Assembly (NCBI RefSeq): GCF_018977255.1
Contig: NW_024704742.1
Location: 69,194,001 to 69,258,000, forward strand
DNA: 64,000 bases
Direction: 5' to 3'
DNA from: Callorhinchus milii
Taxonomy: Eukaryota
Part shown: positions 1 through 64,000 of the stretch, piece by piece
How the letters are laid out: every line of letters begins with the position of its first letter
Numbering within the stretch: position 1 is the stretch's first letter
The notes under the pieces: model-generated
Database searches by the model: none
Told to the model about the DNA's origin: nothing
The model's input: the letters and a program-made list of their open reading frames with translations, nothing else
Made by a program: the position numbers and the translations under genes

Positions 1-264
1 AGGGTGGTCCTAGTTGGACAAGCAGCAGAAAAGCTTCCCAGACAGTGATATTAATGGTAAGCTATGCGGTTTTAGTTGGTTAGACTCCAGCAGTTACTCC
101 CAACTCACACTCTGGGTCCCCAAGCCTTGGCTCTTGGCAACTTGCACCTAATACTTTCCCAGAATTAGGTAAGCAGGATGCATCCCTCCAGGGAGAGAGT
201 GTGTATTCCATTCCAACAATCTATCTCTGGGATTTCCGCAGATACCTGGCTGACGAAAAAAAAA
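1..264 (+). mobile_element. Element X (unclassified structured poly(A) retroposon), copy cut by the window start
   Basis: Matches 50690-51023 with an internal deletion; ends CTGGCTGACG followed by poly(A). Confidence 0.75.
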
Positions 265-5334: not shown

Positions 5335-5642
5335 TAATGGGTAGGGTGGTCCTAGTTGGACAACAGCGGGAAAGCTTGTCAGACAAAGGCAAGCTATGCA
5401 GTTTTAGTTGGTTCCAGCAGTTACCCCAAAGCACACTCTAGGGTCCCAAGCCTTGGTTCTTGCTAATCTGCACCTAATACTTTCCGGGAATTAGGTAATC
5501 AGGATGTTTCCCTTCAGGGAGAGAGCGCATTCCATTCCAACAATCTATCTCTGGGATTTCCATCTGTAGATGGGATGCATCGAATTCTCAGTTTGGTGAT
5601 TGGTTTCCATATGTGTCAGACGCCTGGCTAAACAAATAAAAA
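5335..5642 (+). mobile_element. Element X copy
   Basis: GGGTAGGGTGGTCCTAGTTGGAC...TGTGTCAGACGCCTGGCTAAAC followed by an A-rich tail. Confidence 0.8.
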
Positions 5643-12085: not shown

Positions 12086-12227
12086 TCTGACCTTTGTGAG
12101 CATGTTTCCCCCCACCTCCGCGCTTGCTCGGTATCCAACTCTGTCACCACAAAGTGCTCTGAAACATTACCCTATGTGAAGGACGTTGTACAAATTCAAG
12201 TTGTTGTTCTTAAACTACACAGTTCCT

Positions 12228-12511
12228 CATGGAAATCTCCCCTGTCTGAAATGGAATACCCACTCTCTCCCTGGAGGGATGTGTCCTGCTTGCTTAATTA
12301 TTAGTATTAGGCCCAGGTTGGAAAGATACAAGGCTTGGAGACCCCAGAGCGTGCGGTTGGAGTAACTGCTGGAGTCTAACCAACTAACCTGACATTGAGA
12401 GCACTGTCTGGCAAGCTTCCCGCTGCTTGTCCAGCTAGGACCACCATACGCATTAGGGCCTTGGTTTGCAGGGTTAACAGTAGCTGCGTGGAAAGCATCC
12501 CTATCCCCAGG
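12228..12511 (-). mobile_element. Element X copy
   Basis: Reverse complement aligns to about 50630-50930. Confidence 0.8.
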
Positions 12512-13268
12512 GTGGTTAAAGCAATTAACATTAAAAGCAATCTCTTCAGACAACAGTATTTGCTTTATGTGAAGATGCACCTTAAGCATTTGTCCACTAG
12601 AGAGCAGGCACACAGCACACAGCATTCAGACCCCAGCTTAAAAAACACAAATTTACCATTTATTTATACAGGACCTTTCACATCAGGAGGACCTTTCAAA
12701 GTACTTCACAGGACAGAGTGTAGAATGTAGTAACTGTGTTTTGGAGGTGAACGTGGCAGCCAATTTGCTCACAGCAATATCCTACAAAAGCCATGAAGTG
12801 AGTAACTGATTATATGTTAGAGGATTGTTGGCCAGAAGACCCAGAGAAGTTCCCTTCTCTTTTCGAATAGCACCATGGGTCTTTTAACATCGGAAAGTAT
12901 ATACAAGCAAGCTGTTGTCGTTGTTGTTGAAACGGGTACAGGTTTAACATTTCATCCAAGGGATAGCACCCCTGACATTGCAGCCCTCCCCCAGCACCGT
13001 CCTGGACTGTCAGCCTGTCAGGCGTCATGGTGTTGTTCTGACCCTGATTCCTCCCTTCATGGGCAGTGAGATGAGATACACAACAACAATTCCAGGCAGA
13101 CGGGACTAATGTTAGTCTAATATCTATCATCTCATCCAAAGGATGGTACCTCTGACAATGCAGTCCTCTCCCCACTTCAGGGTTTCAAAGTTACAACAAC
13201 AATAACTTGAATTTATACAGTGCCCTTCGCGCAGGATCGCGTCTCAGAAACCCCACGTGTTTATTTTC

Positions 13269-13509
13269 TACAGGGCACTGACCAACGGCTGAAACATGTG
13301 GATCAGTGTGTATGAGCCCCATCATTTTCAGGCAGATGATGATCCGTTGCCATGTTCGTTGCAACATCTTCTGTAACGTGATGGAGTGAGGAGGCAGTTA
13401 CTGGTGTCAGACATTGTTACACTCGACTTCATCTGCAACAGGAAATAAAAATTCATTGTTAGAAAAAAAACACGGTGGGGGGGTATCAGGACTTTGTGAA
13501 CACCCTGTA
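13269..13509. mobile_element. Possible Tc1/mariner-type DNA element remnant
   Basis: Ends GGACTTTGTGAACACCCTGTA, nearly the same as the TA-ended terminal repeat at 22931-22950. The left end TACAGGG at 13269 matches only weakly. Confidence 0.4.
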
Positions 13510-13636
13510 GAGTGTCAGCCTAGACTGTGAGTCCCAGGATACTGCCACGTGGCGGCGCTCCATAACAGTGAAACATCCCAACAGACAGTCTGATTCCCGA
13601 ATCAGGATTGTATCTGTATTGAGATAGCGCCTGTAA

Positions 13637-13952
13637 CAATAATAATAAAAATCCTTGCATTTCATATAGCTCCTCATCACATCTCGAAGACGTCTCCAAG
13701 CATTTCATAGATTATATTGTAGATTGAATTGACTGTATATGTTATGGCTGAAACTTGGCAACCAATTACATACAGCAGTGTCCCACAAACAGTCATGGAT
13801 TGAGTGACCATTTTTTTTGAAGGGATTATTATCTCTGGAAAGCGATCTCTGGAAAGCGAGGTGTGTAGGGTAAGGAAACTTGCTTAAGGTTTTACCCTGC
13901 CCGGGAAATGAACCCGGATCCCCTCGCTTGTGAGGCTCTACAGGATTCCGTA
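13637..13952 (-). mobile_element. SINE family A
   Basis: Reverse copy with internal deletions. Confidence 0.75.
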
Positions 13953-14438
13953 GTCATGTAAATTGTAATCGCCCTGAATTAAAGAATCGTCCACTATCAC
14001 TAGATATTTCTAAGACAGTGATGTCAAGGCCCAGTGAGAGCATGAAGTGTCTCGCGGTCTCTGAAAGGGTCAGTTCTCTCCTGTTTGTTGATGTGAAGTG
14101 TGTGAAGTGTAAAGAGGCTTTTGTTTCACTGATGAGGTGCGGAGTGTGAAGTCAGATCTTGTGTCTGGAGCGGCTGTTGAATGATTAGCCAGTCAGCTAA
14201 AGATAAACTCACTTCTCAGCATCGCTGAACCGAGTGGACAGAGAGGACTGAAGTCCCATCTAAATGACAAATCTGCTGTACACAATTGACTGCCGCATTT
14301 CGCCCACAAAATACACAGTCATTACACTTAACAGTATATTCTGTGAAATGCTTTGAGATGTCTCAAGGACATGATAAGGCTCTAGATCAAATGCAAGAAT
14401 TGTTATTGTTATTTTAGTATTATTGATAATAATCCTTG

Positions 14439-14892
14439 TACGGATAAACTCACATAAGTCGTATCAGTTGGGATATAACATTTAATATGTGGAGTCCTGT
14501 AGCTCAGTGGTTAGAGCACTCGCTTTGCAAGCGAGAGACCTGAGTTCAATTCCAGGCAGGGTGAAACCTTGGGCAAGTTTCCTTACTCCACACGCCTAAT
14601 AATAATCCCTCCAAAACTAAAAACAATAATAAAATTGGTCATTTTCAATCTACAACTGTTTGTGGGACATTGCTGTGCGCAATTGGCTGCCGCGTTCGCC
14701 TACAAATATACAGTCAATTCACTTTACAGTGTGTTCTGTGAAGCGCTTTGGGACATCCTCCCGATGTGAAAAGCGCTATATCAAATGCAAGGATCATTAT
14801 TATTATCATTAATATTACTTATGCAAAGAATGAGTTATGGGGAATCTGCATAAGTCGTTATCATATATGACTTATATAAGATTTTTTATGTC
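14439..14892 (+). mobile_element. Small Tigger/pogo-like MITE interrupted by a SINE
   Basis: Flanks align to the reverse complement of 32397-32483 (TA-CAGTAAACCTCACGTAAGTC...); a degenerate inverted end lies at about 14869-14892. Confidence 0.55.
14489..14808 (+). mobile_element. SINE A short (deletion) subfamily, full length
   Basis: Intact A and B boxes, TTTGCAA anticodon loop, TSD TTAATAT at 14482-14488 and 14809-14815. Confidence 0.9.
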
Positions 14893-15561
14893 TACCATAT
14901 GACAATTACGGTACACACATACTGTAATGGCTGGTGGCATTAAGGTAATGTTTCTGTACCATGCATATTAAAGCTGAGTTAGCCCATTCTTTCCATAAAC
15001 AGTACTGCACAGCACTGTACCTCATGTGCAGAAAACATATATTGTGTTTCATGTAGAACCTTAAATGGGAGTCGCGTACGCCCACAAAACAGTCACTACA
15101 CGTTACAATAAATTCTGTTAAGAGCTTTGAGACGTCCTCCTGACAAGAGAGCTGCTGTGTCAAATATAAGTGTTATTATTATCAACACATTATCAAAACA
15201 TTTAAATGGGTTTCATGCGATTTGCTATAAAGTGTGGTGGACTGTGGCATTTTGGAGACGAATGCAGCAGCCAATTTGCGCACAGCAACGTCCCACAAAC
15301 AACCATCAATTGAATGACCAATTGTTTTCTTGGAGATTATTAGCCAGGACACTGGGAGAGAAACTCCCTTCACTTTTCACAGAGCATCACGGGATATTTC
15401 TCCTGTAGAATTAGTTTTGAAAACCAAACTCGAACAGTGTTGGGGCTCGCTCTTTAGCAAAAGACCTTGAGGCGAAAACATTAAGATTGAATCGCATCCC
15501 GAATAAATTGCCGAGACAACCATACTTTCTTGCTCAATTTTTAATCCTAACTTCACAAAAT

Positions 15562-15930
15562 AGTAATAATAATAATCCTTGCGTTTTATTTAGTGCCTTA
15601 TCACATTGTTGAGATGTCTCAAAGTGCTTCACTACAATACAATACAAAATTACATTTGTGCAGCGCCTTTGATTGACTGTGAATTTTGTGGACGAAACAT
15701 GGCATTCACAGCAATGTCCCCAAAACAGTGGTGGATTGAAGTACAATTCTTTTTGAAGGGATTATTACACCCGGAAAACAATCCTGCAATTGACTTACAA
15801 CCGGGTTCCTACTCACTGCTGGGTAAACAGAGGTGTGTGAAGTAAAGAAACTTACCTATGGCTTCGTCCTGCTCAGGAATCGAACCCAGGTACTCTCGTT
15901 TGCGGGTGAATGCGCTAACCACTACACTAT
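15562..15930 (-). mobile_element. SINE family A
   Basis: Reverse copy with a short L2-tail-like insert. Confidence 0.7.
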
Positions 15931-16194
15931 GAGAAATCCTCATCCACGTCATTCCACTCACCCACATAATTGGCGAGTTTTGCCTAATCATTATAGCTGA
16001 CGGCAGCATCTGTTTAAACCCCAAAACTCATTTTGTCTCAAATGGAGTCTCGCTATAAGTATAACTTTGCCTACAAAACAGTCACGGGAAAATCCTGTGA
16101 AGTGCTGGGAGACGTCCTCCTGTCATGAAAGGTGTTGTGTCAAATGGGAGTATCATTAAGATTATTCTGTTTTAATACTAGCCAAGCTGAGACA

Positions 16195-16470
16195 ATTTTA
16201 TTTGGGGGATTGTGGACTAGGCCACCGGGAGAGAGAAACTCCCTTTCCTCGAATCGTGCCGTGGAATCATTAATGTCCAGGTGAATAGGCAGACAGGACC
16301 TTAGTTTAATATCTCCTCTGAAGGAAGGCACCTTTGACATTGCAGCGCTCCACCAGCACTGCATTGATGTGTCAACTTAAGAGTCAATTCAAAGTCCTGA
16401 CGTGGGGCTTGATCCCACGAGTTTCTGGCTGGCTCAGAGGCAATAGTGCCTCCGACTGAGCCGGGTTGCC
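16195..16470 (-). mobile_element. SINE family B 5' part
   Basis: Reverse head and Deu core. Confidence 0.75.
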
Positions 16471-17029
16471 AATCTTGGTGAAGGGGAAAGGGCAAGTCAG
16501 CGAAGGGGAGAGGGGTTTCTGTTTTGTGATACTGATGCACCACGGCTCAGAAAGACTGAGCTCGGAGATGTTCACAGGAGAGAGAGGAAGTGGGAGGAGA
16601 AGCCGAGGGAAAGGCAAACAAGTGCGAGGTTTGAAAGAGGAGATGAGATGCCAGCCTGCCGTGTGATGGAGGCAGCTAATGACCAGATGATGTATGGAGC
16701 TGAGCGGCCTGGCCAAGGGATCAAAGGGGGAAGCCTTGTCGGGAAGGAACATCAAACTGTCATCAAAACTCTTTAAAGCTTCACCTCTCCTGCCATCACC
16801 ATCTCACTTTACTTGACCGGCTGCTCATGCAAACAACTGGCTGTTGACTTTTTTGCTGTTGCGCCAGGCTTGGGTTACCTGAGCAGGTAAAGGGCCAGGT
16901 GTCACCTCAACCTAATGCAAGATTCCCACTCGGAATAATAACACTCGCCTGCAAATTACACAGTCACTACCCTTACAGGACATCCAGCAAAGCCACTTGA
17001 GACATCCTCCCGATCTGAAAGGTGCTGTA

Positions 17030-17400
17030 TCAACAACAAGAACAAAAATTATATTTATATAGCACTTTTCACTTCGGGAGGACATTCCAAGGCACTGGAC
17101 AGTCAAGGGTTTGCACCCGAGCTGGGGGTTGGGATCAGGAGGGGTGGAGGGTAGGGAGGGTGGGGGTAGGAGGGTGACGAAAGGCACAGTCGAAGGGGAA
17201 GATCTTAAGACTTGCCTTGAAGGAATCAAGGGAGGGAACGAGGTGAAGGGATAGTGAGATGGAGTTCCAAAAGGTGGGGGCAGAAAGGCTGAAGGCCTGA
17301 GCCCATGATAGGGCAGGTAGGGTGAGGGACATCTTATGGTCTTATGGACATGGAGCAGGCCAGAGTCTGCTGAGAATAGGGAGCAGACATGTGGCTATGG
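17030..17400 (-). mobile_element. L2 LINE 3' fragment
   Basis: Minus-strand AFSLSAPTFWNSI..SFKASLK and a reverse tail. Confidence 0.75.
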
Positions 17401-17780
17401 AGTTGGGACCTTGGCTTTAACATCTCTTCTGAAAGACGGCACTTCTGACACCCAGTACTTCAATCGTTAGCTTAGATTGTGAGCTCAAGGTCCTGACATG
17501 GGGCTTCAACTCACAACTTGCTGACCCAAACCACCACCCAATGTAAAAAGATTTCTTGCAACAAGACTTAAAACAGAACCTTTTGGCACTGGGAAAGAAA
17601 ACAAATCCTCTTTAGGTTGCACCTGCCCTCATTAAATAGTTATATATCTCGATATCCAGGCTTTCAAGAGATTGTTTCGTCAGCATCGCCCACCTCAGAA
17701 ATCAAACACCGACAAAATTAGCAATAAAAATAACCTCCGATTTCCTCTCTCATCTCAATATATGGTTATGCAGCACAGAA

Positions 17781-18436
17781 AGAGTCCCGTAGCATGGTGG
17801 TTAGAGCACTCACCTCGCAAGCGAGAGGACCCAGGTTCGATTCCTGGGCAGAGCCAAACCTCAGGCACGTTTCCTTACTCCACTCACTTCTGTTTACCTA
17901 GAAATAAGTAGGAATCTGGTCGTTAGTTGATTGATGGATCACTTTCCGGGTGTAATAATCCCTCAAAAAAATTTGGTCACTCAATCCACTTTTAGGATGA
18001 TAAAGGGATTTGATAGGGTAGATACAGAGAAGCTATTTCCTCTGGTGGGAGAATCCAAAACAAGGGGCATCGTCTTAAAATTAGAACCAGGCCACTTAAG
18101 AGTGAAATCAGGAAGCATTTTTTCGCTCAAAGGGTGGTAGAAATCTGGAATTCTCTCCTCTGCTGCATCCATCCACACCTTCAAGAGTGAGCTTGATAGA
18201 TGCTTGGTAGGTCAGGGTATTAAGGGATATGGGGAGAAAGTGGGAAATTGGAATTGACAGGATTAGTTGAGGTACAGATCAGCCATGATCTCGTTATGTG
18301 GCGGAACAGGCTCGAAGGGCTGAATGGCCTCCTCCTGTTCCTATGTTCTTCCTATGTTCCACATTTGTGGGACACTGCCGTGCGCAATTCGCTGATGTGT
18401 TTTGCCCACAAATCCAGTTATCCACTTTAGAATATT
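17781..18436 (+). mobile_element. SINE A split by a CR1 3' fragment (CR1 about 17990-18357)
   Basis: CR1: MIKGFDRVDTEKLFPLVGESKTRG..., 3' GGGCTGAATGGCCTCCTCCTG and GTTCCTAT repeats; TCCAC duplicated at 17985-17989 and 18358-18362. Confidence 0.8.
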
Positions 18437-18597
18437 CAGGCCATCGTGCCCGCGCCAGCTCTCTGAGAGAGCTGTGCGTTCAGTCCCGCTACCATGTCCT
18501 TTCACATTGTTAGAAGTCATGAGTTCAAGCCCCAGTTCAGGGCTTGGAACTCATAGTCCAGGCTGACTCTCTGGTGTAGTCTGCAGGGGCTGCAATG

Positions 18598-19150
18598 ATC
18601 TGGTTTAATTTTTCAATCCCATTTAAAATGCTAAATACCTCTATAAGGTGTGCTCTGAGTGGTCTTCTCTCAAGACTGAAGAGCCCTAGCTTGTCTAATT
18701 GTTGCTCATAGCTCATTGTGGAATCCCATAGCGCAGTGGTTAGCACACTTGCCTCGCAAGCAAGAGAACTCTTGTTCAATTCCCGGGCAGGATGAGACCT
18801 TAGGCAAGTTTCCTTATTCCACACACCTCTGTTTACCTTGCAGTAAGTAGGAACTCAGTTGTTAGTTGATTGGTGGATCGCTTTCTGAGCGTAATAATCC
18901 CTTTTTAAAAAAATTTGCTCACTCAATCCACAACTGTTTATGGGACACTGTGCTATTAGCTGCCACTTTCGCCACAAAATACACAGTCAATCACTTTATA
19001 ATATATTCTGTGAAATCCTTTGAGACGTTTCAATGACGTGACAAGGTGCTAGATCAATTGCAAAGGTTAATATTATTATTTCTCTAACACTGGGGATCCT
19101 CCTCATTGGTTTCCACTGCACTGCCTCTAGGACCTTATGGTGCATTGACC
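18598..19150 (-). mobile_element. CR1 ORF2 fragment split by a + strand SINE A (about 18718-19080)
   Basis: Minus-strand RRIPSVRE|MSYEQQLDKLGLFSLERRPLR rejoins when the SINE is removed. Confidence 0.75.
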
Positions 19151-19339
19151 AAAATGGCATCTCTTTAGGGTCTCCTCTCAACCTCCTTTCGGTCATCTTT
19201 CCACAGCCTGCACTCCCCACCCCTCGGCTCCCACCCCCAGCACTGTGAAGCACTCTGAGAAGTCCTCCCATTGTTAAAGGCGCTGTACAAATGTAAATTG
19301 CGTTGTACCTTAAACATGAAGAATTTTTTTTTAAATAAG

Positions 19340-20062
19340 TGCTTGCATTTGATACAGCACCTTTCATCTTAGGAGGATGTCCCAAAGTGTTTCCGAGACT
19401 TTTCTGTAAAATGCAGTGCCCGTGTTTTGTGGGTGAACGTGGCAGTCAATTTGTACACAACAACTTCCCACAAACAGCCATGAAGTGAGTAACCAATTTT
19501 ATTTTAGGGATTGTTGGCCTGGAAACTGGGAGAGAGAAACACCTTTTTCTTTTCGAATAGTGCTATGGGATCGTTAACGTCCTTTGGATTAGATGTTAAA
19601 CCAAGGTCACATTTACCTTTTCAGATGGATATTACAGATCCCATGGCACTATTTGTAAAGATAAGGGAGATTCTCCTGGTGTCCTGGCCAACAAATTCCT
19701 CAAATAAAATTGGTCACTCACTTCATGGCTGTTTATGGGACACTGCCGTGCACAACTGGTTGCCACATTTCGCCCACAAAATAGAGTCAATCCATTTTAC
19801 AGTATATCCTGTAAAGCACTTTGAGACGTCTCAATGAAGTGATAAGGTGTTATATCAAATGCAAGGATTATTCTTATAACATCCACCTGGACAGGCGAAT
19901 AGGAGCTCAGTTTGACGTCAAGTTCGACAATGCATCACACCCCCAACACTGCATTGGAGATTCAGCTTGGACTATATGAGTTCCATGCCCCGATGTGGGG
20001 TTTGAACCCAAACTCTTCTGACTCAGAGGCGAGAGTGCTACCGGCTGAGCCGGGCTGACACA
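19340..20062. mobile_element. Reverse SINE B interrupted by a forward SINE B (about 19585-19878)
   Basis: Reverse Deu core breaks at TTAACGTCC and resumes at TAACATCCACCTG. Confidence 0.65.
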
Positions 20063-20509
20063 CACCTATCCCATTACCTCACAAGCCGAGCAGACCGTGT
20101 AGAGTGGAAGGCGCAAGGCCACTAAGTGGTGGGATGCAATTACTGGAGAATCAAAGGGAGAGAGGCACTGGTCTTGGCAGCCACCTGTCATCAGCTCTGG
20201 GGATGGAGCGGGGCTGTGAATGAGTTCTAAGCCAGGATTAGCTGCTCTCAGCTCCATATTTATTTCAGGTTAAAAGGTCAGCACGAAAATCTATCCCTCC
20301 GGTCTCTATTTACAGATATCAGAGGGGCAGCTGTCCAGACACTCTGAGAGAGAGATAGAGAGAGAGGGATGAGTCAACGCATACTTGGTAATTAGTATCA
20401 AAGCGCCCACCTTGGTGAGAGATGGAGTTTAGTGTCACTGAGGTAAGAGAAGCGAGTTTCTCTCTCCCACACCCCTCCCCAGTATCCCTGGCCGACAATC
20501 TCCCAGATA

Positions 20510-22105: not shown

Positions 22106-22451
22106 GTGGAGTCCTATAGCTCAGTGGTTAGAGCACTCGCTTTGCAAGCGAGAGACCCGAGTTCAATTCCAGGCAGGGCGAAACCTTGGGTAAGTTTCCT
22201 TGCAAAACCTTGGGCAAGTTTGCTTACTCCACACGCCTAATAATAATCCCTCCAAAAAAACAAAACAATAATAAATTGGTAATTTTCAATCTACGACTGT
22301 TTGTGGGACATTGCTGTGCGCAATTGGCTGCCGCGTTCGCCCACAAATATACAGTCAATTCACTTTACAGTGTGTTCTGTGAAGCGCTTTGGGACGTCCT
22401 CCCGATGTGAAAAGCGCTATATCAAATGCAAGGATTATTATTATTATTATT
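22106..22451 (+). mobile_element. SINE A short subfamily, full length, with a ~23-bp internal tandem duplication
   Basis: TSD ATAAC at 22101-22105 and 22452-22456; AAACCTTGGG(T/C)AAGTTT(C/G)CTT is repeated. Confidence 0.9.
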
Positions 22452-22471
22452 ATAACCTGGGCCGGGGTAAG

Positions 22472-22950
22472 TACAGGGTATTTAACAAGTCACTGGGGGC
22501 AGGGAGTCATCCCACTCAGCTCCTGTTAACCCAAGCCAAAGCCTAACGGGTAGGGTGGTCCTAGCTGGACAAGCAGCGGGAAAGTTTGCCTGACAGCGAT
22601 ATCAATGGCAAGCTATATGGTTTTAGCTGGTTAGACTCCAGCCATACTCCAACACACACTCTGAGGTCCCCAAACCTTGGCTCTTGCCAACCTACACCTA
22701 GTACTTTCCAGAATTAGGTAATCAGGAAGTGTCCCTCAGGGAGAGAGCGCATTCCATTCCAACAATCTATCTGTGGGATTTCCATGTATAGGTGGGAAGC
22801 GTAGAAATCTCAGTTTGGTTTGGATACTCTTAAGCACGATGATGGGTTTCCATATGTGTCAGGCACCCGGCTAACCAAAAGAAACACAGAAAACAAAAAA
22901 TAATTGTAAGAAAAAAACAGAGGCTAACTGGACTTTGTAAACACCCTGTA
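22472..22950. mobile_element. Mariner-type inverted-repeat element enclosing an element X copy (X about 22488-22900, +)
   Basis: TACAGGGTATTTAACAAGTC (22472-22491) matches the reverse complement of GACTTTGTAAACACCCTGTA (22931-22950) at 17/20 positions; TA termini. Confidence 0.6.
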
Positions 22951-29646: not shown

Positions 29647-29900
29647 CAGGATCACTAGCATTTTTTCCCCACCTGTTGGTAGAAAATACCTGAAGAGCTT
29701 TCCTCTTGTCCTCTCTCGGTCTCTGTGTCTCTCATACACCTACACACAAAAGTTCTCTCTTACACTCACACCTCTCACACACATAAGTTCTGTGTGTGTG
29801 TGTGTCTCTCTGTGTGTGTGTGTGTCTCTCTCACACACACAAGTTCTCTCTCTTGTCTCACACACACACAGAAGCTCCCCCTGGGTGGGGCTGATGGATT

Positions 29901-30459
29901 ATGAAACCTGTTGGCTTGCATGACTTGGAGCCACCTTATCTACGTCCTAGGACAGCACAGGAGATGTACTGCGAGAACTTGAGCGCCTACCAACATCAAC
30001 AACAGCACCAGAGACCGGCCACTTACCCCATCGGTGACTACTCTAACCCCTACTTGTGGCTCAACACCCCGGGGGCAGTCAGCGCCTCCCCCCCACCTTA
30101 CCTGCACCCTAGTGGGGGCGCGTCTCCATCCTTCGTGCCCTCTTCTTCCTACGGCTCCCAGAAGCCGTTTGTGCCTGGCTCTGGTGGCTTCTCAAACGCC
30201 GATCTGGGCTGGTTGTCCATCAGCAGCCAAGAGGAGCTTCTCAAGCTGGTCAGACCGCCTTACTCCTACTCTGCTCTCATCGCCATGGCCATTCAGAGTG
30301 CCCCAGACAAGAGGTTGACCCTCAGTCACATCTACCAGTATGTGGCTGACAACTTTCCCTTCTACAAGAGGAGCAAAGCTGGCTGGCAGAACTCCATCCG
30401 ACACAACCTCTCCCTCAATGATTGCTTCAAGAAGGTGCCCAGAGATGAGGACGACCCGG
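29901..30459 (+). CDS. foxi: FoxI-class forkhead transcription factor, coding exon 1 (N-terminus and first part of the forkhead domain); closest in character to Foxi3/Xenopus foxi1c-type proteins, paralog not certain
   Basis: Translation contains the FoxI N-terminal motifs NPYLWLN and [32 protein letters not shown]...[23 protein letters not shown]. It ends at donor CCG G|GTAAGA (GT at 30460-30461), the conserved FoxI intron position. An alternative in-frame ATG lies at 29964 (MYCEN). Confidence 0.95.
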
Positions 30460-30584
30460 GTAAGAAGGCGAGCGCTCCCAGGCGCTATCATGATAATCAG
30501 AAATAATAGTAATAATCTTTGCATTTGATATAGTGCCTAAGAATGTCAGAAGGACATTGCAAGGAGCTTCTTGGGATGTACCGT

Positions 30585-30835
30585 GAAATAATAATAGTTC
30601 TTGCATTTGATATCGCGCCTTATCACGATGTTGTGAAGTCTCAAAGAGCTTCCCAGAATATATTGTAAAGTGAAAATTGACTATATTTTGTGGGCAAAAC
30701 ATAGCAGCCAATTGGCACAGCAGTGTCCTACAAATTCAGTGACCACATATTTTTTTGGAGGGATTATTACCCCCCGGAAAGCAATCCGCCAATCGACTAA
30801 CAATCGGGTTCCCACTTACTGCTCGGGATTCCACA
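30585..30835 (-). mobile_element. SINE A fragment (intronic, antisense)
   Basis: Reverse tail and middle domain. Confidence 0.75.
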
Positions 30836-31201
30836 GTAAAATTATAAATAATAATACTTGCATTTGTTACAGTGCCTTAACACGTTGGAAGTACATCTCA
30901 AACCAGTTCTCAGGATTTACCATGAAATAACGGAGAGGCTGTATAGTTTGTAGGCAAGTGCGGCAGCAAAATTTTCACACAGCAATGTCCTGCCAACACT
31001 AGTAGATGCAAAACGCTCGCTTCCTTTTGCTTATTCTCTCTCTCGCTTCTCGGCTCTAAAACACTCTGAAACCTCCTTTGCTCAATAAATCCTTATTTCG
31101 CCCACAAAACGCGGTCAATCCTTTTTACAGTGTATCCTGTGAAGCACTTTGAGATGTCTCAAGGGCATGATAAGGCGCTATATCAAATGCATTATTATCA
31201 T

Positions 31202-31484
31202 TCAGGATGCGTCCCTCCAGGGAGAGAGTGCGCATTCCATTCCAACAATGTATCTGGGATTTCCATGTGCAGGTTCGCCCACAAATATACAGTCAATTCA
31301 CTTTACAGTGTGTTCTGTGAAGCGCTTTGGGACGTCCTCCCGACGTGAAAAGCGCTATATCAAATGCAAGGATTATTATTATTATTATAGGTGGGATGCA
31401 TGGAATTCTCAGTTTGGTTTGGAGACTCTTAAGCATGGGGATGGGTTTCCACATGTGTCAGACACCCGGCTGTCCAAGCAAAAA
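31202..31484 (+). mobile_element. Element X 3' part split by a 5'-truncated short-subfamily SINE A (about 31275-31388)
   Basis: AGGT is present on both sides of the insert (31271-31274 and 31389-31392). Confidence 0.8.
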
Positions 31485-31989
31485 TAATTATTATAGATGC
31501 CATCTCCTAATAGTTATCTCTACCACCCCAAAACCCAACCGCACCAACCTCTAACCTACAAACTACCCCACCCCACCCAGCCCCGTAAAGAGAGTGATTA
31601 ATGTCATTTTCTGTGGCAGATTTGGACCACGATCACTATCCTGTAAAATGTGATAATTATTGCATCGAATCTTCTATTGAGAGTTTGCACTGTAGTAAGT
31701 CTCTTTTTCTCTTTGACTCACACGCAAACAGAGCTCAATTATTCCAACTGATTGCTTTGAAATAGACAATTGTGATATATATATATATATATTTTGATGG
31801 ATCCCGTTCCTTTAAGTGGTTACCACTAGCCACTGTCTGTCACTCTCTCTGTTACATTTTCGAAGGGGGAAGTGGGGTTGTTATGGGGAAGAGGGGCGGC
31901 ATTTAACAAGAAAATAATACAGTAAAACTTGCATTAATCTGATCTGTGTAAATCATACAATTGTCTAAGTTGTACATCTGTTCAACTTT

Positions 31990-32370
31990 GTGGAGTCCTG
32001 TAGCGTAGTGGTTAGAGCACTTGCCTTACAAGTGAGAGGACTTGAGTTTGATTCCCAGGCCGGGCAAAATGTTAGGCAAGTTTCCTTACTCCATACGCCA
32101 CTGTTTATCAAGCAGCAAGTAGGAACTTTGTTGTTTCGCTATTGGCAGATTGCTTTTCTGGGGGTAATAATCACTTAAAAAAAGTGATTCCCTCAATCCA
32201 CAACTGTTGGTGGGACACAGCTGTGCGTAATTGGCTGCCACGTTTCGCCCACAAAATATACAGTCAATTTTACTTTTACAGTATATTCTGTGAAGCGCTT
32301 TGAGATGTCTCAAAGAAGTGATAAGGGGCTGTATCAAATGCAAGGATTATTATTATTGTTATTATTATTC
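31990..32370 (+). mobile_element. SINE family A, full length (intronic)
   Basis: Complete copy. Confidence 0.85.
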
Positions 32371-32396
32371 TAAGTCCTGTTCAAGAGTTTATATTC

Positions 32397-32483
32397 TATG
32401 TAAATGTGACATAACTCATACTCTGCATAAATCATATTAAATGTACAGTCCCAACTGATAAGACTTACGTGAGGTTTACTGTA
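32397..32483 (-). mobile_element. Tigger/pogo-like MITE end
   Basis: Reverse complement TA-CAGTAAACCTCACGTAAGTCTTATCAGTTGGGA..., homologous to 14439-14488 plus 14816-14850. Confidence 0.55.
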
Positions 32484-32794
32484 TTACAAATCTCCCTGTA
32501 TTTTGTGTCTAGTTTTATGCTTTTTTGTCTTGCCTCGGCATTGGAATTTAAAATTTATTTTGTGATATATATTTAAAATAGTTTCTCTCCATACAATATG
32601 GGTTGAGTGATTGATCCCAGGTTGATTGGAAGGCTGTGTGGGTTTGACAATGTAACATCTGCTGTTCATTTTGCTTCGCAGTCCCAAATTTTTGTTTTGA
32701 TTGAATTTCTATTTTTTGGGGTAAGGGGGCTTAATTTGAAAATAAATATAAATTCAAAATAATGTGATGGGGGCGCAGGAAAGTTGTGGGGGGA

Positions 32795-33222
32795 ATAGAA
32801 TCCTATAACGTATTGGTTAGAGCACTCGTCTCGCAAGAGTGAGGACCCGGGTTCGATTCCCAGGCAAGTTTCCTTACTCCACACGTCTCTGTCGGGTCTC
32901 CATCCCGATGTGAAAGGCATTTACAAATGTAATATCATTTGTTGTTTACCTAACAGTAAGTAGGAGCCCGGTTGTCAGTGGATCACATTTCTGGGAGTAA
33001 TAATCCCTTAAAAAAAATTGGTCCCTCAATTCATGACTGTTTGTGGGACACTGCTGTGCACACTTGGCTGCGGCGTTTCACCCACAAAAATACAAAAATA
33101 CACAGAATATATTGTATATTCGTATACGTCAATTCACTTTTCAATATACTCTGTGAAACGCTTTGAGACGATTCAATGATGTGATAAGGGGCTACATCAA
33201 AATGCAAGGATTATTATTATTA
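32795..33222 (+). mobile_element. SINE family A (intronic), with an L2-tail insert
   Basis: Head, middle and tail are recognisable. Confidence 0.75.
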
Positions 33223-33341
33223 CTTGGGTGCATCTGTAATGACAGTTTTGCAAGATGAGTGTTGATGTGGTGGGGAGAATTGACATCTATATACTGTATA
33301 AATTACATTATATTTTTTTTGTTTGCGACTGATTTGCACAG

Positions 33342-33874
33342 GGAAAGGCAATTATTGGACTCTGGACCCGAACTGCGAGAAAATGTTCGACAACGGGAAT
33401 TTCCGCAGGAAGAGAAAGCGCCGGAGCGAGTCCGGCTCGGGTCCCCTGAAGCCCGGGGACAGTGGCTTAGGGGCTGGCTTGAAGGCGGAGGAGAGCCCCA
33501 CAGGCGGGCTGGACACGGGGGTGAGGGAGCTCGAGCGGTCGGGGGGCTCCCCAGACCCCGAGGGCAAACCCAGTCCGTGTCTCAGTGGCTTTTTCAGCAG
33601 CGTTGCAGCCATCAGTGGCGCTCCGGCCAACAGGCAGGTTTCCGTGGGATTCACCGGGAACTTGACTCAGAGGAGCGTCACAGGAATGGCCGCTTCCTAC
33701 TGCACGAGTGGTGCCGGCCTGTCCTCGCACGAATCCTCAGATACAGTGGACGCAATCCACCTGAACCGTCCCGCTTACTACAACTCCTTCCCCACCGGCC
33801 AAGCCAGCTGTCACTTCTACAACAGCTTCAGTGTGAATAGTTTGATCTACCCCAGGGAAGGCACCGAGGTCTGA
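33342..33874 (+). CDS. foxi: FoxI-class forkhead transcription factor, coding exon 2 (end of forkhead domain, NLS, C-terminus)
   Basis: T-rich tract and TTTGCACAG acceptor (AG 33340-33341). G|GG restores the Gly codon, giving [30 protein letters not shown] ... [19 protein letters not shown], the FoxI-typical C-terminus. Exon lengths 559+533 = 1092 nt = 363 aa plus stop. Confidence 0.95.
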
Positions 33875-37700: not shown

Positions 37701-38657
37701 GTGGGTTGGAAGTAGGACCCCTGTTGTTAATCGATTGGCAGATTGCTTTCCAGGGGTAATAATCCCTCCAAAAAATAATAATGATAATTTGGTCCCTCAA
37801 TCCATGACTGCTTATGGGACACTGTTGCACACAATTGGCTATGGTGTTTTGCCCACAAAATATAGTCAATTCACTTTACGATATATCCTGTGAAGCTTTT
37901 TGAGACATTTCAATGACGTGAAATGGCGCTATATCAAATGCCAGGATTATTATTATATTCATGTAACCCTCATGACTCAGGGGTGAGAGCATTAATGACT
38001 GAGCCAGGCCGACACTGACAAATCATCTCCATGCTGGCTGATGTTGGGGTTAGCTGGTCTGTTTGCACACATTGCCGTATTCAAATCAATTTCTCTGTTT
38101 ATTTCAGTCCAGTTCAATTGCTCAATTTGATTTTGATGGAGTCGTTAATTTACATTACATCTGCCTTGTGAAAGTCTTGTCTTTCTCTCTCTAACTCCTT
38201 CCATACTCCCCTCTCCATTGTATTGTGTGCGGACGTCACAGAAACAGATTAGCTGCTTTGCTCGCCTCCCTAACAATACTCACTTCATCTCTAATTAATC
38301 TCATTCTGACTAGCGTTTCGAAATGCTTCTATTTTACGTGCAAAACGCTGCATAAATCTCTTTCCATTAGTTTTGGGGATGTGTGGTTGGCGAAATGTGT
38401 GTTCGGGGTGGAGGTTGATCAGTCCACAGCCGTTAGCAAAAAATTCAGAGACAGTTCCGAAAGAGTTTGGCTACTTTGAGTCGTTGGGAGTTTCAGAACA
38501 TCTCAAAGCACTTCACAAATCTTTACTGTAAAGTGCAGTGTCTGTGTACTTGAAGTGAAATGCAGCAACTGATATGCGCACAGCTAATATCCTGTAAATA
38601 GCTGTTAGCTGTTAAGTGAAAGGACCAATTTTTTATCTGGGGGGTAGTTATCCAGGA

Positions 38658-38721
38658 TTTTGTTTGGTCAGCGGGTATCTGACACTTGCAGAAGCCCATC
38701 ACCATGTTTATCAGTATCCAA
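38658..38721 (-). mobile_element. Element X extreme 3' fragment inside a reverse SINE B
   Basis: Reverse complement ...CATGGTGATGGGC..GTGTCAGATACCCGCTGACCAAACAAAA. Confidence 0.7.
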
Positions 38722-44454: not shown

Positions 44455-46457
44455 AGAGACCCACCACCCGGCTTCACCTTCCATCATACCCCATGACCTA
44501 ACCACCGTGGTGGTGGTGTGGCTCTCATCTCCCCGTCCCCGCTCGGCCTATTCCTTACTCTGGAACCTTCTCCTCCTTTGAGCACCTTATTCTTTATCAC
44601 CTCTCCAACCTTTCTCTCAAAATTCTCCTTACCTATCGCCCTTTCAAGTCCTCCTTCATCCCCGACATCTCCACCCTCCTATCTTCCCTCTCTCTCTGGT
44701 CCGAAACGCCTCCTCATTCAACCTTCACTTCACCCGCTCCTGCTCTACCTCTGCTGACTTCTCATCCCTTATCTCCTCCCTCAACCTCTGCCTCCACATC
44801 CTCTCTGCCAGCCACGTCTGTGGTCACCTCCTTGACCTGGTGATCACCCGGGGCCTCACTGTCTCAGACCTCACTATAATCGACAAAGTGATATTGGACC
44901 ATCACTTTATCTCCCTTAACTCCTCAATCCCTCTCCCCACTGCCACCCAACCCACCTCCATCTCCTACTGCCCCTGGAAAAAAATCTCCCCCTCCTCCTT
45001 CTCGTTGGAGTCATCTGAACTTTTTCTCCTCTGGGCTTCCTCCGGCAATGACCTTACCTCCTCGGTCACTCTTCTCCACAGCTCCCTCTCCTCCACTATT
45101 GATTCCCTTGCTCCCCTCTCTTCCCGAACAATCTCCTATTCAAATAAGTCACCATGGTACACCAGCCACCTCTGCTCCCTTAAAGCATAGTTGTGTACCG
45201 CTGAATGCACTTGGCTTAAATTGAACTTAACGCTCCATCAGCAGATCTGGCTGGACTATTATCGGACTATAGCCCTGCCTGCGCCTCCGCCAAATCGTCA
45301 TTCTACTACAAGACAATCTTGGAGGCTAAGGACAACCCCAGGCTCCTCATCTCCATCACCAGTCAGCTCCTCCACCCACCCTCTCATGCTTGGCCCATCC
45401 TCACCTCCAATGCCAACTGCAAGGCGATGCTTGATTTCCTTGAATCCAAAGTTGAGGGGATCCACTCAGCTTCCTCTGCCCTTCCGTCTACTACAACTAC
45501 CCATCTCCCCGTCCCACCCCGGCCCCTACCCATCCCTCCCTCCACACCTTCGAACCTGTCTCCCACTCCCCTCTCACCACCACTATAACCCGCATGAAAC
45601 CAACCACCTGCTACCTCGACCCCATCCCTACCCCCCTCCTTACTTCCCAGCTCCATCTCCTTGCCCATCTACTCACAGACATCATAAACCTCTCCCCTGT
45701 CCACTGGTTCTGTTCCCACACTATTAAAAATCACCGTCATCACTCCTATCCTTAAAAACCCTTTCTGGACCCATCTCTATTCTCAAACTACTGCCCCAGC
45801 TCCAACCTCCCTTTCCTCTCCAAGGGCCTAGAATGGGTTTTTGCTTCCCAGCTTCTCTCCTTCCTCTCCCGCCACTCCCTTCATGAACCCCTCCAATCGG
45901 GTTTCCGTGCCGCCCACAGCACAGACACAGTCCTGGTCAAAGTGACAAATGACATTCTGTTAATCTGCGACAAGGGCTCGCTCTGCCTCCTCATCCTCGT
46001 TGACCTCTCTGCTGCCTTTGACATAGTTGACTACTCTATCCTCATCCACCGCTTCTCCTTTCACCTCATCCTGGTCCTCACCTTCAAAGCCCTCCATGGT
46101 CTTGCTCCCCCTACCTCTGTGACCTCCTTAACCCCCTACCATCCTGTCAGCTCCCTCCGCTCAACGGGCTCCGGCCTGCTTCACGTGCCTCGGCTCGCTC
46201 GCCCCACCATTGGTGGGCGGGCCTTCTGCCACTCTGCCCCCACCCTCTGGAACTTCATCCCACAGTCCCTCCACCTCGCCGCCTCCTTCAAGACTCATCT
46301 CAAGACCCACTTCTTTGACCGTGCTTTGGATCTCTCTGCTTCCTCCAATCACCCCGATCCCAACCCAAGCTCAGGTCCAAAGCTCAGACTCTCCAGCACC
46401 TTGGGACGTCCTCCCGACGTGAAAGACGGAATACAAATGTAACTTTGTTGTTGTTGA
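44455..46457 (+). mobile_element. L2 LINE with endonuclease-region remnant and a large internal deletion of the RT domain
   Basis: APE-type motifs (..RGGGVALI, GHLLDLVITRG, DHHFI, SPWYT). The RT start (QSGFRAAHST, LVDLSAAFD) is joined at about 46066 directly to ILVLTFKALHGLAPP; intact tail. Confidence 0.85.
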
Positions 46458-48570: not shown

Positions 48571-49879
48571 CGATTTCTTCCAGTTTCTGACTGAAAACAT
48601 TTCACAACACGCCACCTCAAAATGCGCAGGAACGGAAAAGATTAAAGAATCGATTCATGTTTTTAAAAAAATTGTAATGTTTCACAAAATGAACATATTT
48701 TAAAAAATCAATATATTTCTTATATATATTCCATATATGTATGTAGGTAAAAGTATGTTGCTTTGAGGGAAAATCCAGCTGGTGTCTGCATTTGATCTGA
48801 GACAAAAATATTCCCAATTATTTTTTCCACTTAGTTGGGAAGACAGACAGACAGACCACAATGGAAAGGTTGAGAGCACTGGATATGCATGCTCACACTA
48901 ACACTGAACTTGTAACCTCGTTCATGGAAGATTATTCAAAGGAATGTTAATCTTAGCCCACGTTCTCCCCGTCCCCTTCCTCGTTCGATTCCCCCCACTC
49001 CCCCCCCCCGAAAGACACTCTTGTAGCAGAGAAGAAATTCCACGTCTTTCTGACCTTCTCCACCTCTCTCTCCCCTCCGCCACCCTCATATCCCATCCGC
49101 GCTCTCTCTGCCGATCAACTTCCCTTGAGCTGTAGTATATATTTATTGCTGGGAGTTTCAGGTGGGTGGAAAATACAACATTTCCTAACTGATTGGATGT
49201 GGTAATTATCACATCCCAATTGTCACATCCAATCTGCTTGGAAACGTCACATTTTTGACCCTCTACTGTCACGGTTGGAATATTTCTGCATGGTTCAGGA
49301 TCTCGGGGAGCTTTAGTGTAGCTGAACGATGCGCTCAGCAGAGAAACTTCAAATTGTAACCGCCCCAATGCTCTCCCTCCCAACCTCCCGCTGGTCTTGG
49401 CCTGTGAGACAGTTTTACCTTTGAAAATTAAGACCACGCAGAATTGTGCAGGAATTCAGGCTTAATTTGGAAGCCAGTCTTAAAATAATAATAATAATGA
49501 TGATGATGATAATAATGGTGACATTTGATTTAGCGCCTTCCACGTCTCACAGGATTTCCTGTAAAGTGTAGCGATGTTTCGCCCACAAAATATACAGTCA
49601 ATCCACTTTACAATATATTCTGTGAAGTGCTTTGGTTCATCTCAACGACATGATAAGGTGCTCCATCAAATGCATGGATTATTATTATTATTTGTAGGTG
49701 AATACACTTATGAACAGCAACCTCCCACAAACTGCCGTGAATTGAATGACCAATCTTTTTTATCAATTGGTCATTAAGACTGAATTCACGAATTCTCTGA
49801 ATTTCTACATCTTCTTAACTTTTAAGGGAAAATTAGTTTACAGGCTAACTGGAATTTTGAACTCTAACCAAAGGGGACC

Positions 49880-49981
49880 TTTTTTTGGTCAGCCCGGTGC
49901 ATGACACATCTGGAAAGCCATCACCATGCTTCAGAGAATCCAGACCAGACTGATAGTTCCATGCATCCCATCCACACATAG
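49880..49981 (-). mobile_element. Element X 3' fragment
   Basis: Poly(T) followed by GGTCAGCCCGGTGCATGACACAT..CATCACCATGCT. Confidence 0.75.
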
Positions 49982-50450
49982 ACCCTTTATAAATTGACTG
50001 TGCTAATCTTTGCTAATGTCTACCCAATCGGTCCCCTTCAAATACCTATTAAATTCCCTTTTAAAAGTTGTTATTGAATCTGTTTCCACCACCCTTTCAA
50101 GCAAGGATTATTATTAATAAACCCTTTTGTCTCTGAGTCAGAAGGTTATGGTTCAAACCGCACACTGGGACTTTGAACTCACATAGTCTAAGATGACACT
50201 ATGTTGCAGTGCTAGGGGTGTGATGCATTTTTGGAGGTGACATTCCTTTGGATCAGATTTAAACTGAGGTCCCGACTGCCTGTTCAGGTGGACATTAAAG
50301 ATCCTATGGCACTATTTGAAAAGAGAAGGAAGTTTATCCTGGTGTCCTGGCCAACAATCCCCCAAATAAAATGAGTCATTCACTTAATTGTGGGACATTG
50401 CTATGTTTAAATTGACTATAGCCTTTGCCACAAAACGCCCGGGGTCTCCT

Positions 50451-51023
50451 TGGAACTGAACTGACTCCAAGGTAACATGCTTGACAACAGAATGTCGGAA
50501 TCGAGCCAGTCCTCAGTGGTGGTCTCTAGTCTGGTTCCTGAGCCAGGCGGGTCTGCAGTATTTCAGGGCATTGCTGATGACAACACAGCCCAGCCTGGCT
50601 CATCAGCAGGACTTGGAGCAGACCAGTCCCTTGGGGCAGGGAAGTCATCCCACGCAGCTTCTGATAACCCTGCAAGCCAAAGCCCTAATGGGTAATGTGG
50701 TCCTAGCTGGATAAGCAGCGAGAAAGCTTGCAAGTCAGCAATCTCAATGGCAAGCTATGCAGTTTAGCTGGTTAGACTCCAGCAGTTACCCCAATACACG
50801 CTCTGTGACCCCCAAGCCATGGCTCTTGCCAACCGGCGCCTAATATTTTCTGGAATTAGGTAATCAGGATGTGTCCCTCCACGGAGAGAGCGCATTCCAT
50901 TCCAACAATCTCTCTCTGGGATTTCCATATGTAGGTGGGATGCATGGAATTCTCAGTTTGGAGACCCTTAAGCATGGTGATGGGTTTCCTCATGTGTCAG
51001 ACACCCGGCTGACCTAAAAAAAA
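50451..51023 (+). mobile_element. Element X, longest copy with a complete 3' end (about 570 bp)
   Basis: Follows a truncated SINE B (50128-50435); ends GTCAGACACCCGGCTGACCT followed by A8. Confidence 0.85.
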
Positions 51024-51239
51024 TTTGACCAGATGCTTTTAATAATCCCAGCCACAGTAATCCCTACTAAAGAAGACGCCAGGCTGGCCACATATCAATA
51101 ACAATATGCACTTATACAGCTTCTTTTATATAGTCAATTTCACAGAGACAAGTGGCACTCCGGGTGCAATACAATACAATGCAATTTACGTTTATGCAGC
51201 GTCTTTCACATTGGGAGGACGTCTCAAAGGGCTTGACAC

Positions 51240-51550
51240 AACAACAACCACAAAATTATATTTGTGTAGCGCCTCTCCCATCAGGAGGATGTCCTAAGGT
51301 GCTAGACAATCAGTGTTTCAGACCCGAGCTGCGGGTTGGGATTTGGGAGGGTGGAGGGCAGGGGGAGAAGCAGGGTGATTGAAAGTACAGTCGAAGAGGA
51401 GGGTCTTGAGATGGGTCTTGAAGGAGGTAAGGGGGCAGCGGTGGGGGGGGGGTTGTGAGGCGGAGGATCTGCGGGATGAAGTTCCAGAGGGTGGGATCAG
51501 AGTGGCTAAAGGCCCACCCGCCAATGGTGGGGCGGGCGAGGCCGGTGGGC
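51240..51550 (-). mobile_element. L2 LINE 3' fragment
   Basis: Minus-strand TSFKTHLKTLLFD and a reverse tail. Confidence 0.75.
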
Positions 51551-51595
51551 GGGCAGTGGGGGTGGGATCTGAGAGGAGTGGGGGAGGTAATGATG

Positions 51596-51870
51596 AAGCT
51601 TGCTGGACAGTACTATCGATTGCAGTTTTAGCTGGTTTCGACTCCAGCAGTTAAGCTAACGCACATTCTGGGGTCCCCATGGCTCGGCTATTGCCAACCT
51701 GCGCCTATTACTTCCTAATATTTTCCAGGGAGAGAGTGCGGATTCCATTCCAGCAATCTATCTTTGGAATTTCCATGAGTAGGTGGGATGCATGATATTC
51801 TCAGCTTGGTTTGGATATTCTTAAGCATGATGATGGGTTTCCTCATGTGTCAGGCTGACCAAAAAAAGAA
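51596..51870 (+). mobile_element. Element X copy
   Basis: Aligns to about 50725-51023; ends GGCTGACC followed by A7. Confidence 0.8.
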
Positions 51871-52164
51871 ATAGACAAAAAGTAGAGAAGGGATTTAGGG
51901 AGAGAAATCCAGTAGATAAAGATGTGAGAGACTCTTTTCCTTTACATGACCCAACTGTGCAGCGCCTTGGGACGTCCTCCTGACGTGAAAGGCGCTTTAT
52001 AAATGGAATCTTGTTGTTGTTGTTGTACATTAATTCACACGGGTATAGTTTGCAGCATTGTATAACGTATCACTTGTGTTAATTAACCTAAGGAATGAGT
52101 TATGAAATGGTGGAAAATGTATCCTTTTTTGGCTCAGTCGGATATGGTTTGAAGCTACCATATT

Positions 52165-52520
52165 GCTCCCTCTACACCCTGCTCCCTCCCTAACTCACTC
52201 TCCCCTGACTCGCTCCTTCGGCATTCCTCCCTCCTGCTGTACCCCTTCCTCCCTCCCTCCCTCTCTCTCACCCTGCCTCATTCCCTCACTCCCTCAATCT
52301 CCTCCCTCCCTCACTCCCTCCATCATTACCTTCCTCCCTCGCTCCCTCCTTCCTTAACTCTCCACCCTCCCTCTCTACCCTTCCCCTTGTCAACACTCCC
52401 TCCCTCTTCATTCCTCCCTCTCGCTGTACCCTTCCCTCCCCCTCACTATCCCCCGCTCGCTCCCACCTCACTCATCTCCCTGTATATACACACGCACACA
52501 CACACACACACACACACATA
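52165..52520 (+). repeat. CT-rich polypyrimidine tract followed by (CA)n
   Basis: Direct reading. Confidence 0.85.
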
Positions 52521-63125: not shown

Positions 63126-63189
63126 TTCAAGTCTCCAAATCAAATGACTGAGAACTCCAGTGTGTGTTTGAAAAATGAGACCCATTTAT

Positions 63190-63605
63190 CTGATATGGAG
63201 TGCAAACTCTCTCTCTTTCCCTCCTCCCTGGAAAGATTTGATCTAATTCCCAGACATTTAGGCAAAGGTTGGCAAGTGCCAAGCCTGAGGAACACTAGAT
63301 TATATGTTTGGGGGTAACTTCTTATTGTAATCACTGTCTGGCAGGCTTTTCTGCAGCTTGTGCAGATAGGACCACCCTAGCTGTCATGGCCTTTACTTGC
63401 AGGTTAACAGGAGCTGAGTTGGAAGAGTCCCTGCCCCAGTGACTGATCTGCCCTTCCACGTCCTGCCATTGAGCCAGGCTGGGCTGTGCCCTGGAATACC
63501 GCAGACCCGCCTGGCTCAGGAATCGGACTAGAGACCGTCACGAAGGATGGGCTTGATTCTGACATTCCGTTGCCGAGCACGTCAGCCTAGGGCTAGCTCA
63601 GCCCC
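63190..63605 (-). mobile_element. Element X, diverged copy containing the 5' region
   Basis: Reverse complement aligns to about 50451-50900. Confidence 0.75.
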
Positions 63606-63787
63606 TGCTAACCTCCCCCCAAACCCCAGGAGGCAAACACAGTCACTACACTTTACAATAAATCCTATGAAGCTCTTTGAGGATTGCTCCCGTCATGAAA
63701 TGAGCAAAGTCAAAAACAGGGATTGTTTGTGATTTATCACTTCAGCCACAAGATTATTAATAGCTCTGATAATATTTTTAAAAAAGG

Positions 63788-64000
63788 TTTTTTTGATCAG
63801 CCGGGTCTCTGACCCATCACCACGCTTAGGAGTCTCCAAACATGGAAATCCCAGAGATAGATTATTGGAATTGCTCTCTCCCTGGAGGGATACATCCTGT
63901 TTACCTAATTCCAGAAAGTATTAGAGGCACAGGTTGGCAAGAGCCAAGGCTTGGGGATCCCAGAGTGTGCGTTGAGGAACTGCTGGAGACTAACCAGCTA
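63788..64000 (-). mobile_element. Element X 3' part, cut by the window end
   Basis: Poly(T) followed by GATCAGCCGGGTCTCTGAC...CTGGAGACTAACCAGCTA. Confidence 0.8.

Follow-up and report, generated by a model that had tools for sequence, protein, structure and literature searches.

The window analysed here, a stretch of 64,000 nucleotides from the elephant shark Callorhinchus milii (contig NW_024704742.1), contains a two-exon forkhead gene at approximately 29895-33874 (+), the first exon of which is 100% identical to C. milii foxi2, the next best match lying at 65-70%. The window is rich in LINE fragments that we take to be L2-like, and longer L2-like ORF2 remnants with deletions are found at 3442-5020, 10244-11014 and 44582-46442 (+). 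Rfam reports 12 tRNA matches, which, judging from the comparison of the window with itself, would be the heads of a tRNA-headed SINE densely represented here. SINE/L2 tail stubs, about 110 bp long and with similar 5' ends, occur by the dozen (e.g. 671-790, 31275-31387 and 49574-49692). A further repeat, referred to here as family X, is the subject of this analysis.

BLASTN and nhmmer recover all 11 copies or fragments of family X that the first-pass annotation had claimed, six on the + strand and five on the - strand. They appear as 12 segments at E <= 2e-6, since a SINE tail interrupts the copy at 31200-31485, which is counted as two. Family X totals 3,191 bp, or 5.0% of the window, with a GC content of 52%, and its segments are 72-88% identical to the longest copy. 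This copy (575 nt), likely a LINE 3' UTR, occupies 50440..51014 (+) as delimited by alignment and by a step in sequencing depth; it had been annotated at 50451..51023, where a copy does exist, but contig depth places its start at 50440. Its A8 tail lies at 51016..51023 (+), and the contig loose ends past 51014 are A-runs in the four sequencing runs analysed. The second long copy, at 63130..63625 (-) by nhmmer and alignment, has lost its 3' end and is the most diverged, with 69% identity to the column majority (the majority letters of 12 family X fragments), as against 85-97% for the other 11 fragments. The 5' ends of these two copies map within about 20 nt of each other, and each adjoins, at its 5' side, a SINE piece cut near the same point as the tail stubs. 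BLASTN and alignment delimit copies truncated 393 nt (22485..22884, +), 387 nt (12228..12512, -, 3' end lost), 329 nt (5335..5642, +) and 291 nt (51596..51868, +, with an L2 fragment adjoining) from the 3' end. According to BLASTN, nhmmer and alignment, the copy at 1..264 (+), which has lost about 70 nt internally, is cut by the window start, and that at 63786..64000 (-), with two internal deletions, by the window end. The shortest copies comprise one of 153 nt in the foxi2 intron (31200..31485, +, nhmmer), split by the nested SINE tail at 31275-31387, one of 92 nt (49879..49983, -, BLASTN) and one of 57 nt (38657..38721, -, BLASTN and nhmmer). The internal deletions (copies 1-264, 5335-5642, 51596-51868, 63786-64000 and 63130-63625) often lie between short direct repeats of family X. 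Upstream of the copy at 22485..22884, some 35 nt that separate it from a SINE tail (22450-22484, +) have no other match in the window; they could be flanking DNA, additional 5' bases of that copy or a variant form of its upstream part.

The copies had been described as ending alike in CTGACC(A)n and as differing in 5' truncation. The 3' terminus and an A-rich run of 5-9 nt are kept in nine of the 11, but the exact CTGACC is present in only four of these nine. The 5' ends, for nine copies and leaving out the two cut by the window edges, lie 57, 92, 153, 291, 329, 387, 393, 575 and ~576 nt from the 3' end, which agrees with the truncation described. A common 3' tail end, staggered 5' ends and dispersed insertion are the footprint of target-primed reverse transcription, and the attribution of this pattern to family X holds. 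The copies reside in SINEs, L2 fragments, an intron and unique DNA. The 5' flanks of nine copies, a small sample, consist of varied SINE, L2 and unique sequence in which no common site is seen, and the 3' flanks of nine copies are 68% A+T against 56% for the window, partly owing to tail remnants. Seven copies, 7-15% diverged from the majority, have both ends, and they yield two target duplication candidates, both weak: one of 8 bp found by script within an ATT repeat (copy 31200-31485) and one, degenerate and of about 10 bp, found by eye (copy 49879-49983). The spread of identities, together with the variants common to several copies, suggests that more than one source element was active over time.

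Beyond the window, part of the longest copy is present in 20 of 24 listed public sequencing runs; these bear the codes of four organisms or a fish-gut label, and some bear no label. Contigs were analysed for four of the 24 runs, from three organisms, and 37,887 (run X1, organism A), 23,237 (X10, organism B), 16,158 (X14, organism C) and 7,580 (X12, organism A) of them fall on the longest copy. Their depth is about zero in its flanks, starts abruptly at 50440-50441, passing from 36-133 in the bin 50418-50440 to 3,919-20,271 in the bin 50441-50463, and ends at about 51023. Within the copy, depth falls from 3' to 5', with a rank correlation between depth and position of 0.86-0.87 and a ratio of the mean depth of the first four bins to that of the last five of 0.043-0.059 in all four runs, so that the 5' end stands at about 5% of the 3' end. 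Such depth gives no copy number, and its dips track the private changes of the longest copy; only the direction of the trend is used here. Over the first bins the depth is level (17,208, 16,954 and 18,098 in run X1), and listed contigs extend 32, 146 and 223 letters upstream of 50440 (three + strand records). Position 50440 is absent from the best-supported 24 of 3,418 loose ends. The commonest letters at 40 listed sites agree in direction across the four runs, which indicates that family X is common to the organisms and, as far as such sequence agreement can tell, probably older than the split of the three. None of the runs that contain the longest copy is recorded as RNA. Run X12, which is RNA only by guess, shows a depth profile parallel to that of the DNA run, with a rank correlation of 0.99 and a ratio of 0.20-0.50, and its contigs are evidence neither for nor against a transcript.

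The first-pass annotation had seen no tRNA, 5S or 7SL head and no L2 or CR1 tail on family X, and both observations are borne out. Rfam reports no match to family X in the window at the gathering score and six sub-threshold matches at E <= 10, and ARAGORN finds no tRNA in 49500-52200; no tRNA, 5S or 7SL head is found. A scan of the two long copies with Pol III box motifs returns no A+B pair and one isolated match per copy. Comparison with one SINE copy of the window that retains its tail shows no likeness (best E 0.91), and BLASTN and nhmmer searches of the whole window with the longest copy return family X copies only. Neither AATAAA nor ATTAAA occurs in the two long copies, nor does either precede the tail in the alignment, and no rRNA in the window is matched by Rfam. 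With hammerhead and HDV-like descriptors, no hammerhead core is found in eight strand tests of family X copies, and the relaxed HDV-like matches vary in position from copy to copy, with 4-16% of shuffles reaching the same frequency.

Coding signals were sought on both strands. On the sense strand, a frame of 76 codons is largely open in both long copies; its translation has no match among longer proteins and four repeat-driven matches among 1.84 billion representatives. On the antisense strand, a near-open frame of about 190 codons spans 50440-51014 (-) with five stops in the longest copy, the first of which recurs in all three other copies examined, and a 47-residue piece of it finds no relatives among the proteins searched. 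Pfam returns no match for 18 read-through frames around the long copies, and tblastn with five LINE ORF pieces from the window matches no family X copy. Nucleotide scans are equally silent: prokaryote genomes give 0 and three matches, none past 19 nt; a metagenome scan gives a single 22-nt match, by chance, inside a gene that we take to be uvrA-like; and of two patterns scanned against IMG/VR, one has 0 matches and the other 16, all by chance and none past 17-18 nt. IMG/VR is poor in animal RNA viruses, and this last scan is a weak test. Five DNA words of family X occur in no paper text, and no title or abstract names it in the literature searched, a search outside which Dfam, Repbase and most subscription papers lie. 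The part of the supplement of the elephant-shark genome paper (PMC3964593) that was searched, which probably excludes its repeat section, holds no match to repeat terms.

Family X had also been described as a chain of RNA hairpins, on the strength of eight stems drawn by eye. The longest copy folds with a z of -1.85 (four of 100 shuffles as good) and ten single copies with z between -1.6 and +1.0. Folded in sense, the 400-nt column majority reaches -2.1 and -2.3, equalled by 5 and 4 of 200 shuffles respectively, and folded in antisense it reaches -1.4 and -1.0; one 100-nt window of it reaches -3.3. Background windows of 300 nt average -0.62, and five of 40 have z <= -2.1. These predictions suggest folding modestly above chance, which is visible against shuffled controls for the majority (z about -2.2) but not for single copies, which lie near background; together with the lack of covariation described below, this makes the chain of hairpins an overstatement. 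Six of the eight stems recur in the folded column majority with pair probabilities of 0.90-0.99, but those of GTCC with GGAC and GCTGG with CCAGC lose to other pairings, and five of the eight are imperfect in the longest copy itself. Five stem arms that are imperfect there are restored by the commonest letters in the sequencing runs. In the majority, a 3' run of predicted hairpins spans 50725..51013 (+), with individual hairpins at 50725-50756, 50819-50832, 50833-50868, 50874-50885, 50916-50955, 50972-50995 and 50996-51013; the long stem consists of 6+10 pairs around a mismatch. Further upstream, the longest perfect stem (10 bp, 50539-50548 with 50593-50602) is predicted in the second long copy as well as in the longest; a predicted 9-bp stem that competes with it (50572-50580 with 50600-50608) is confined to the longest copy, one of its arms being deleted in the second. 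The two overlap by 3 nt within 50539-50608 (+) and could, if the predicted pairings are right, form a pseudoknot or a switch in the longest copy. Several predicted stems use common arms and are therefore mutually exclusive.

The number of perfect stems of at least 7 bp in the longest copy is 10, against 2.95 in dinucleotide shuffles, only one of 500 of which has as many. This excess is not significant in five other copies, is absent at a shorter stem length in six of six, and 10 stems are also reached by six of 96 background tiles. Covariation, which was to be expected of a conserved structure, does not appear: four cells are changed on both sides of a pair against 2.7 in shuffles, with 162 of 500 shuffles as high, in a count of low power (60 pairs and 392 cells from 12 decayed fragments). 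Two of the four cells come from the most diverged, poorly aligned copy. A second test gives the same result (522 of 2000 shuffles), and RNAalifold returns no pairs on the gappy alignment and is uninformative. At non-CpG sites, divergence is 0.119 for paired and 0.111 for unpaired positions (p 0.52), an equality that corresponds to dead copies under neutral decay. Single changes keep a pair in 30 of 75 cases, against an expected fraction of 0.29 (p 0.03), though these copies themselves supplied the structure, and variants held in common are not independent. The retention of pairing as G-U in copy variants, which the first-pass annotation had noted, was rejected as a weak sign of selection; C-to-T and A-to-G transitions in stems yield G-U anyway, and the variants are mostly what ordinary transitions give. 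Overall, the modelled folds make it likely that the source RNA of family X carried some real hairpins.

Family X is a real, very abundant and old retroposed family. With a probability of roughly three in four, it is the non-coding 3' UTR (~600 nt) of an old, abundant, poly(A)-tailed LINE, the copies of which are 5'-truncated; this was the first of three origins proposed by the first-pass annotation and is the best reading of the data. We favour it because nine of the 11 copies keep a common 3' end with an A-run while the 5' ends are staggered and depth falls from 3' to 5', because depth is level over the first bins and contig letters continue upstream of 50440, and because there is no Pol III head, no coding signal in the two tested frames and no difference in divergence between paired and unpaired sites. 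The parent is likely distinct from the surrounding L2 and CR1 elements, and family X may already be catalogued in a repeat library. Mechanistically, the ORF2 protein of the parent, once attached to its own RNA, would have nicked A/T-rich DNA and primed reverse transcription there from the poly(A) end. As reverse transcription would mostly have stopped early, nearly all copies would keep only the last 50-600 nt, which are UTR, and would then have decayed neutrally; the parent would be an autonomous LINE, with copies that seldom extended as far as the ORF. By analogy with stringent LINEs, the predicted terminal stem-loop GTCAG/CTGAC before the A-tail would be the likely recognition signal. Against a LINE 3' UTR speak the absence from the window of an ORF2 joined to the repeat, as judged by Pfam on 18 frames and tblastn with five ORF pieces, the start of the two longest copies within about 20 nt, as a discrete element would give, the weak target duplications of seven copies and, from the accessible part of PMC5203782, the apparent rarity of L1 proper in C. 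milii.

The same coincidence of the two longest 5' ends, and the lack of an ORF2 beside any copy in the window, would suit a promoterless and non-autonomous retroposon, some 575 nt long and with a fixed 5' end of its own, that a poly(A)-priming LINE would mobilise in trans, comparable to Sadhu, SINEU-1 or a LINE-tail derivative; such elements exist, according to the accessible text of PMC4494074. However, depth drops to about 5% of its 3' value towards the putative 5' end, no promoter pair lies near the start and 50440 is missing from the 24 best of 3,418 loose ends, and we regard this origin as rather unlikely. No more probable is its fuller version, in which family X, about 575 nt long and with neither Pol III head nor protein, would be a retroposon in its own right, amplified to the percent level in three related organisms. 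Its source RNA, with hairpins under selection, would recruit a third, unclassified poly(A)-priming LINE, and its 5' hairpins would set a fixed start or a strong stop to reverse transcription.

R2 has a structured 3' UTR, and an origin from a restriction-like-endonuclease LINE, either R2 or the non-site-specific Hero/NeSL type, would account for the poly(A) tail, the hairpins and the weak target duplications. R2 is present in Chondrichthyes as far as the accessible text of PMC12247875 goes, but the 28S specificity of R2 finds no counterpart in a window devoid of rRNA matches and in flanks lacking a common target, and no HDV-like ribozyme is convincing, the relaxed matches being equalled by 4-16% of shuffles. 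The R2-like flavour given to family X by the first-pass annotation is not sustained by the varied insertion sites of the copies described above, and this origin is improbable. About as improbable, or slightly more so, are retrocopies of an abundant structured host ncRNA. The majority does fold better than shuffles, and better in sense than in antisense, the longest copy has its 10 stems against 2.95, and pair-keeping changes exceed expectation (p 0.03), but no Rfam family reaches the gathering score, there is no covariation, the stem excess is missing from five other copies and matched by six of 96 background tiles, and the diagnostic variants in common point to several successive source copies. 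The ncRNA option lacks support, as does the third one raised, an endogenised 3' end of an RNA virus, which has in its favour the general look of hairpins before an A-tail and nothing else. IMG/VR gave 0 and 16 chance matches (17-18 nt), Rfam no viral element and the protein searches no relatives, while the abundance in three organisms is very high, and such an origin is hardly credible.

If family X is the tail of a LINE, little is at stake beyond repeat annotation and the addition of a third abundant family to the LINEs of the elephant shark; at best it would serve to mark insertions when related species are compared and would add another example of a folded LINE tail. If it is instead a discrete retroposon, it would represent a vertebrate retroposon that spread widely without small-RNA promoter or coding capacity, and its RNA would offer a substrate on which the choice of structured templates by a LINE protein could be tested. 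Family X is probably ordinary.

LINEs dominate the C. milii genome according to the accessible text of PMC4350176, and their clades are listed in that of PMC5753468. The poly(A)-tailed AP-endonuclease LINEs (L1/Tx1) serve as the working model for the LINE 3' UTR reading, with the same common 3' end, A-tail, staggered 5' ends and dispersed insertion. A 3' UTR several hundred bases long is nothing unusual in a LINE, and the length of family X falls in the usual range, zebrafish L1 having 167-807 bp in the part of PMC5381506 consulted. The L1s reported there carry AATAAA and long T/C/G tracts, whereas family X, at 52% GC, has neither, and membership of the L1 clade proper was rejected on the absence of AATAAA before its tail. 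A supplement row of PMC5203782, the header of which lies outside the part available, holds only 113 short entries for C. milii, read here as L1 matches. Many Tx1 members have a target-sequence preference (PMC4494074, in part). Zenon, of the CR1 group, has a poly(A) tail as does family X and is present in cartilaginous fishes, but makes up 0.018% of the C. milii genome (PMC13343379, accessible part, Table S4) against 5.0% of one window for family X. Four DNA words of family X are absent from the accessible portion of the same supplement; Zenon identity was rejected on abundance, which is not strictly defining. R2 and its kin have an A-tail like that of family X, which in contrast does not lie in 28S rDNA, has no common target and shows no ribozyme in the searches made; R2 was rejected on its 28S target site (PMC12247875, in part), Rfam matching no rRNA in the window.

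The known SINE/LINE pair of the elephant shark, SINEX-1_CM/SINE2-1_CM with CR1-2_CM (PMC3747384, accessible part), belongs to the same species and is likewise abundant and often truncated, but family X has no tRNA head, unlike the tRNA-headed SINE of the window, which we infer to be SINE2-1_CM. A SINE identity was accordingly rejected for want of a small-RNA head and of a Pol III A+B pair, and that of an L2/CR1-dependent SINE for want of a 3' tail in common (best E 0.91). Sadhu in plants and SINEU-1 in crocodilians are non-coding and devoid of a recognisable promoter, as is family X, and SINEU is poly(A)-tailed (PMC4494074, in part); family X differs by its steep 5' fall-off, neither a fixed 5' start nor an snRNA head being demonstrated in it. 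Recognition of a stem-loop in their own 3' tail is characteristic of most LINEs (PMC4176376, accessible text), and the stringent tails of zebrafish ZfL2-1 and ZfL2-2 and of silkworm SART1 resemble family X in that a stem-loop, predicted in the latter, stands at the terminus before the 3' repeat (PMC4176376 and PMC3747384, both in part). Tails of the ZfL2 type end in a short tandem repeat, whereas family X ends in an A-tail and is unlike the SINE/L2 tail of the window. However, poly(A) tails occur in stringent LINEs too, and SART1, which is stringent, ends in poly(A) as does the tail of family X (PMC3747384, accessible part).
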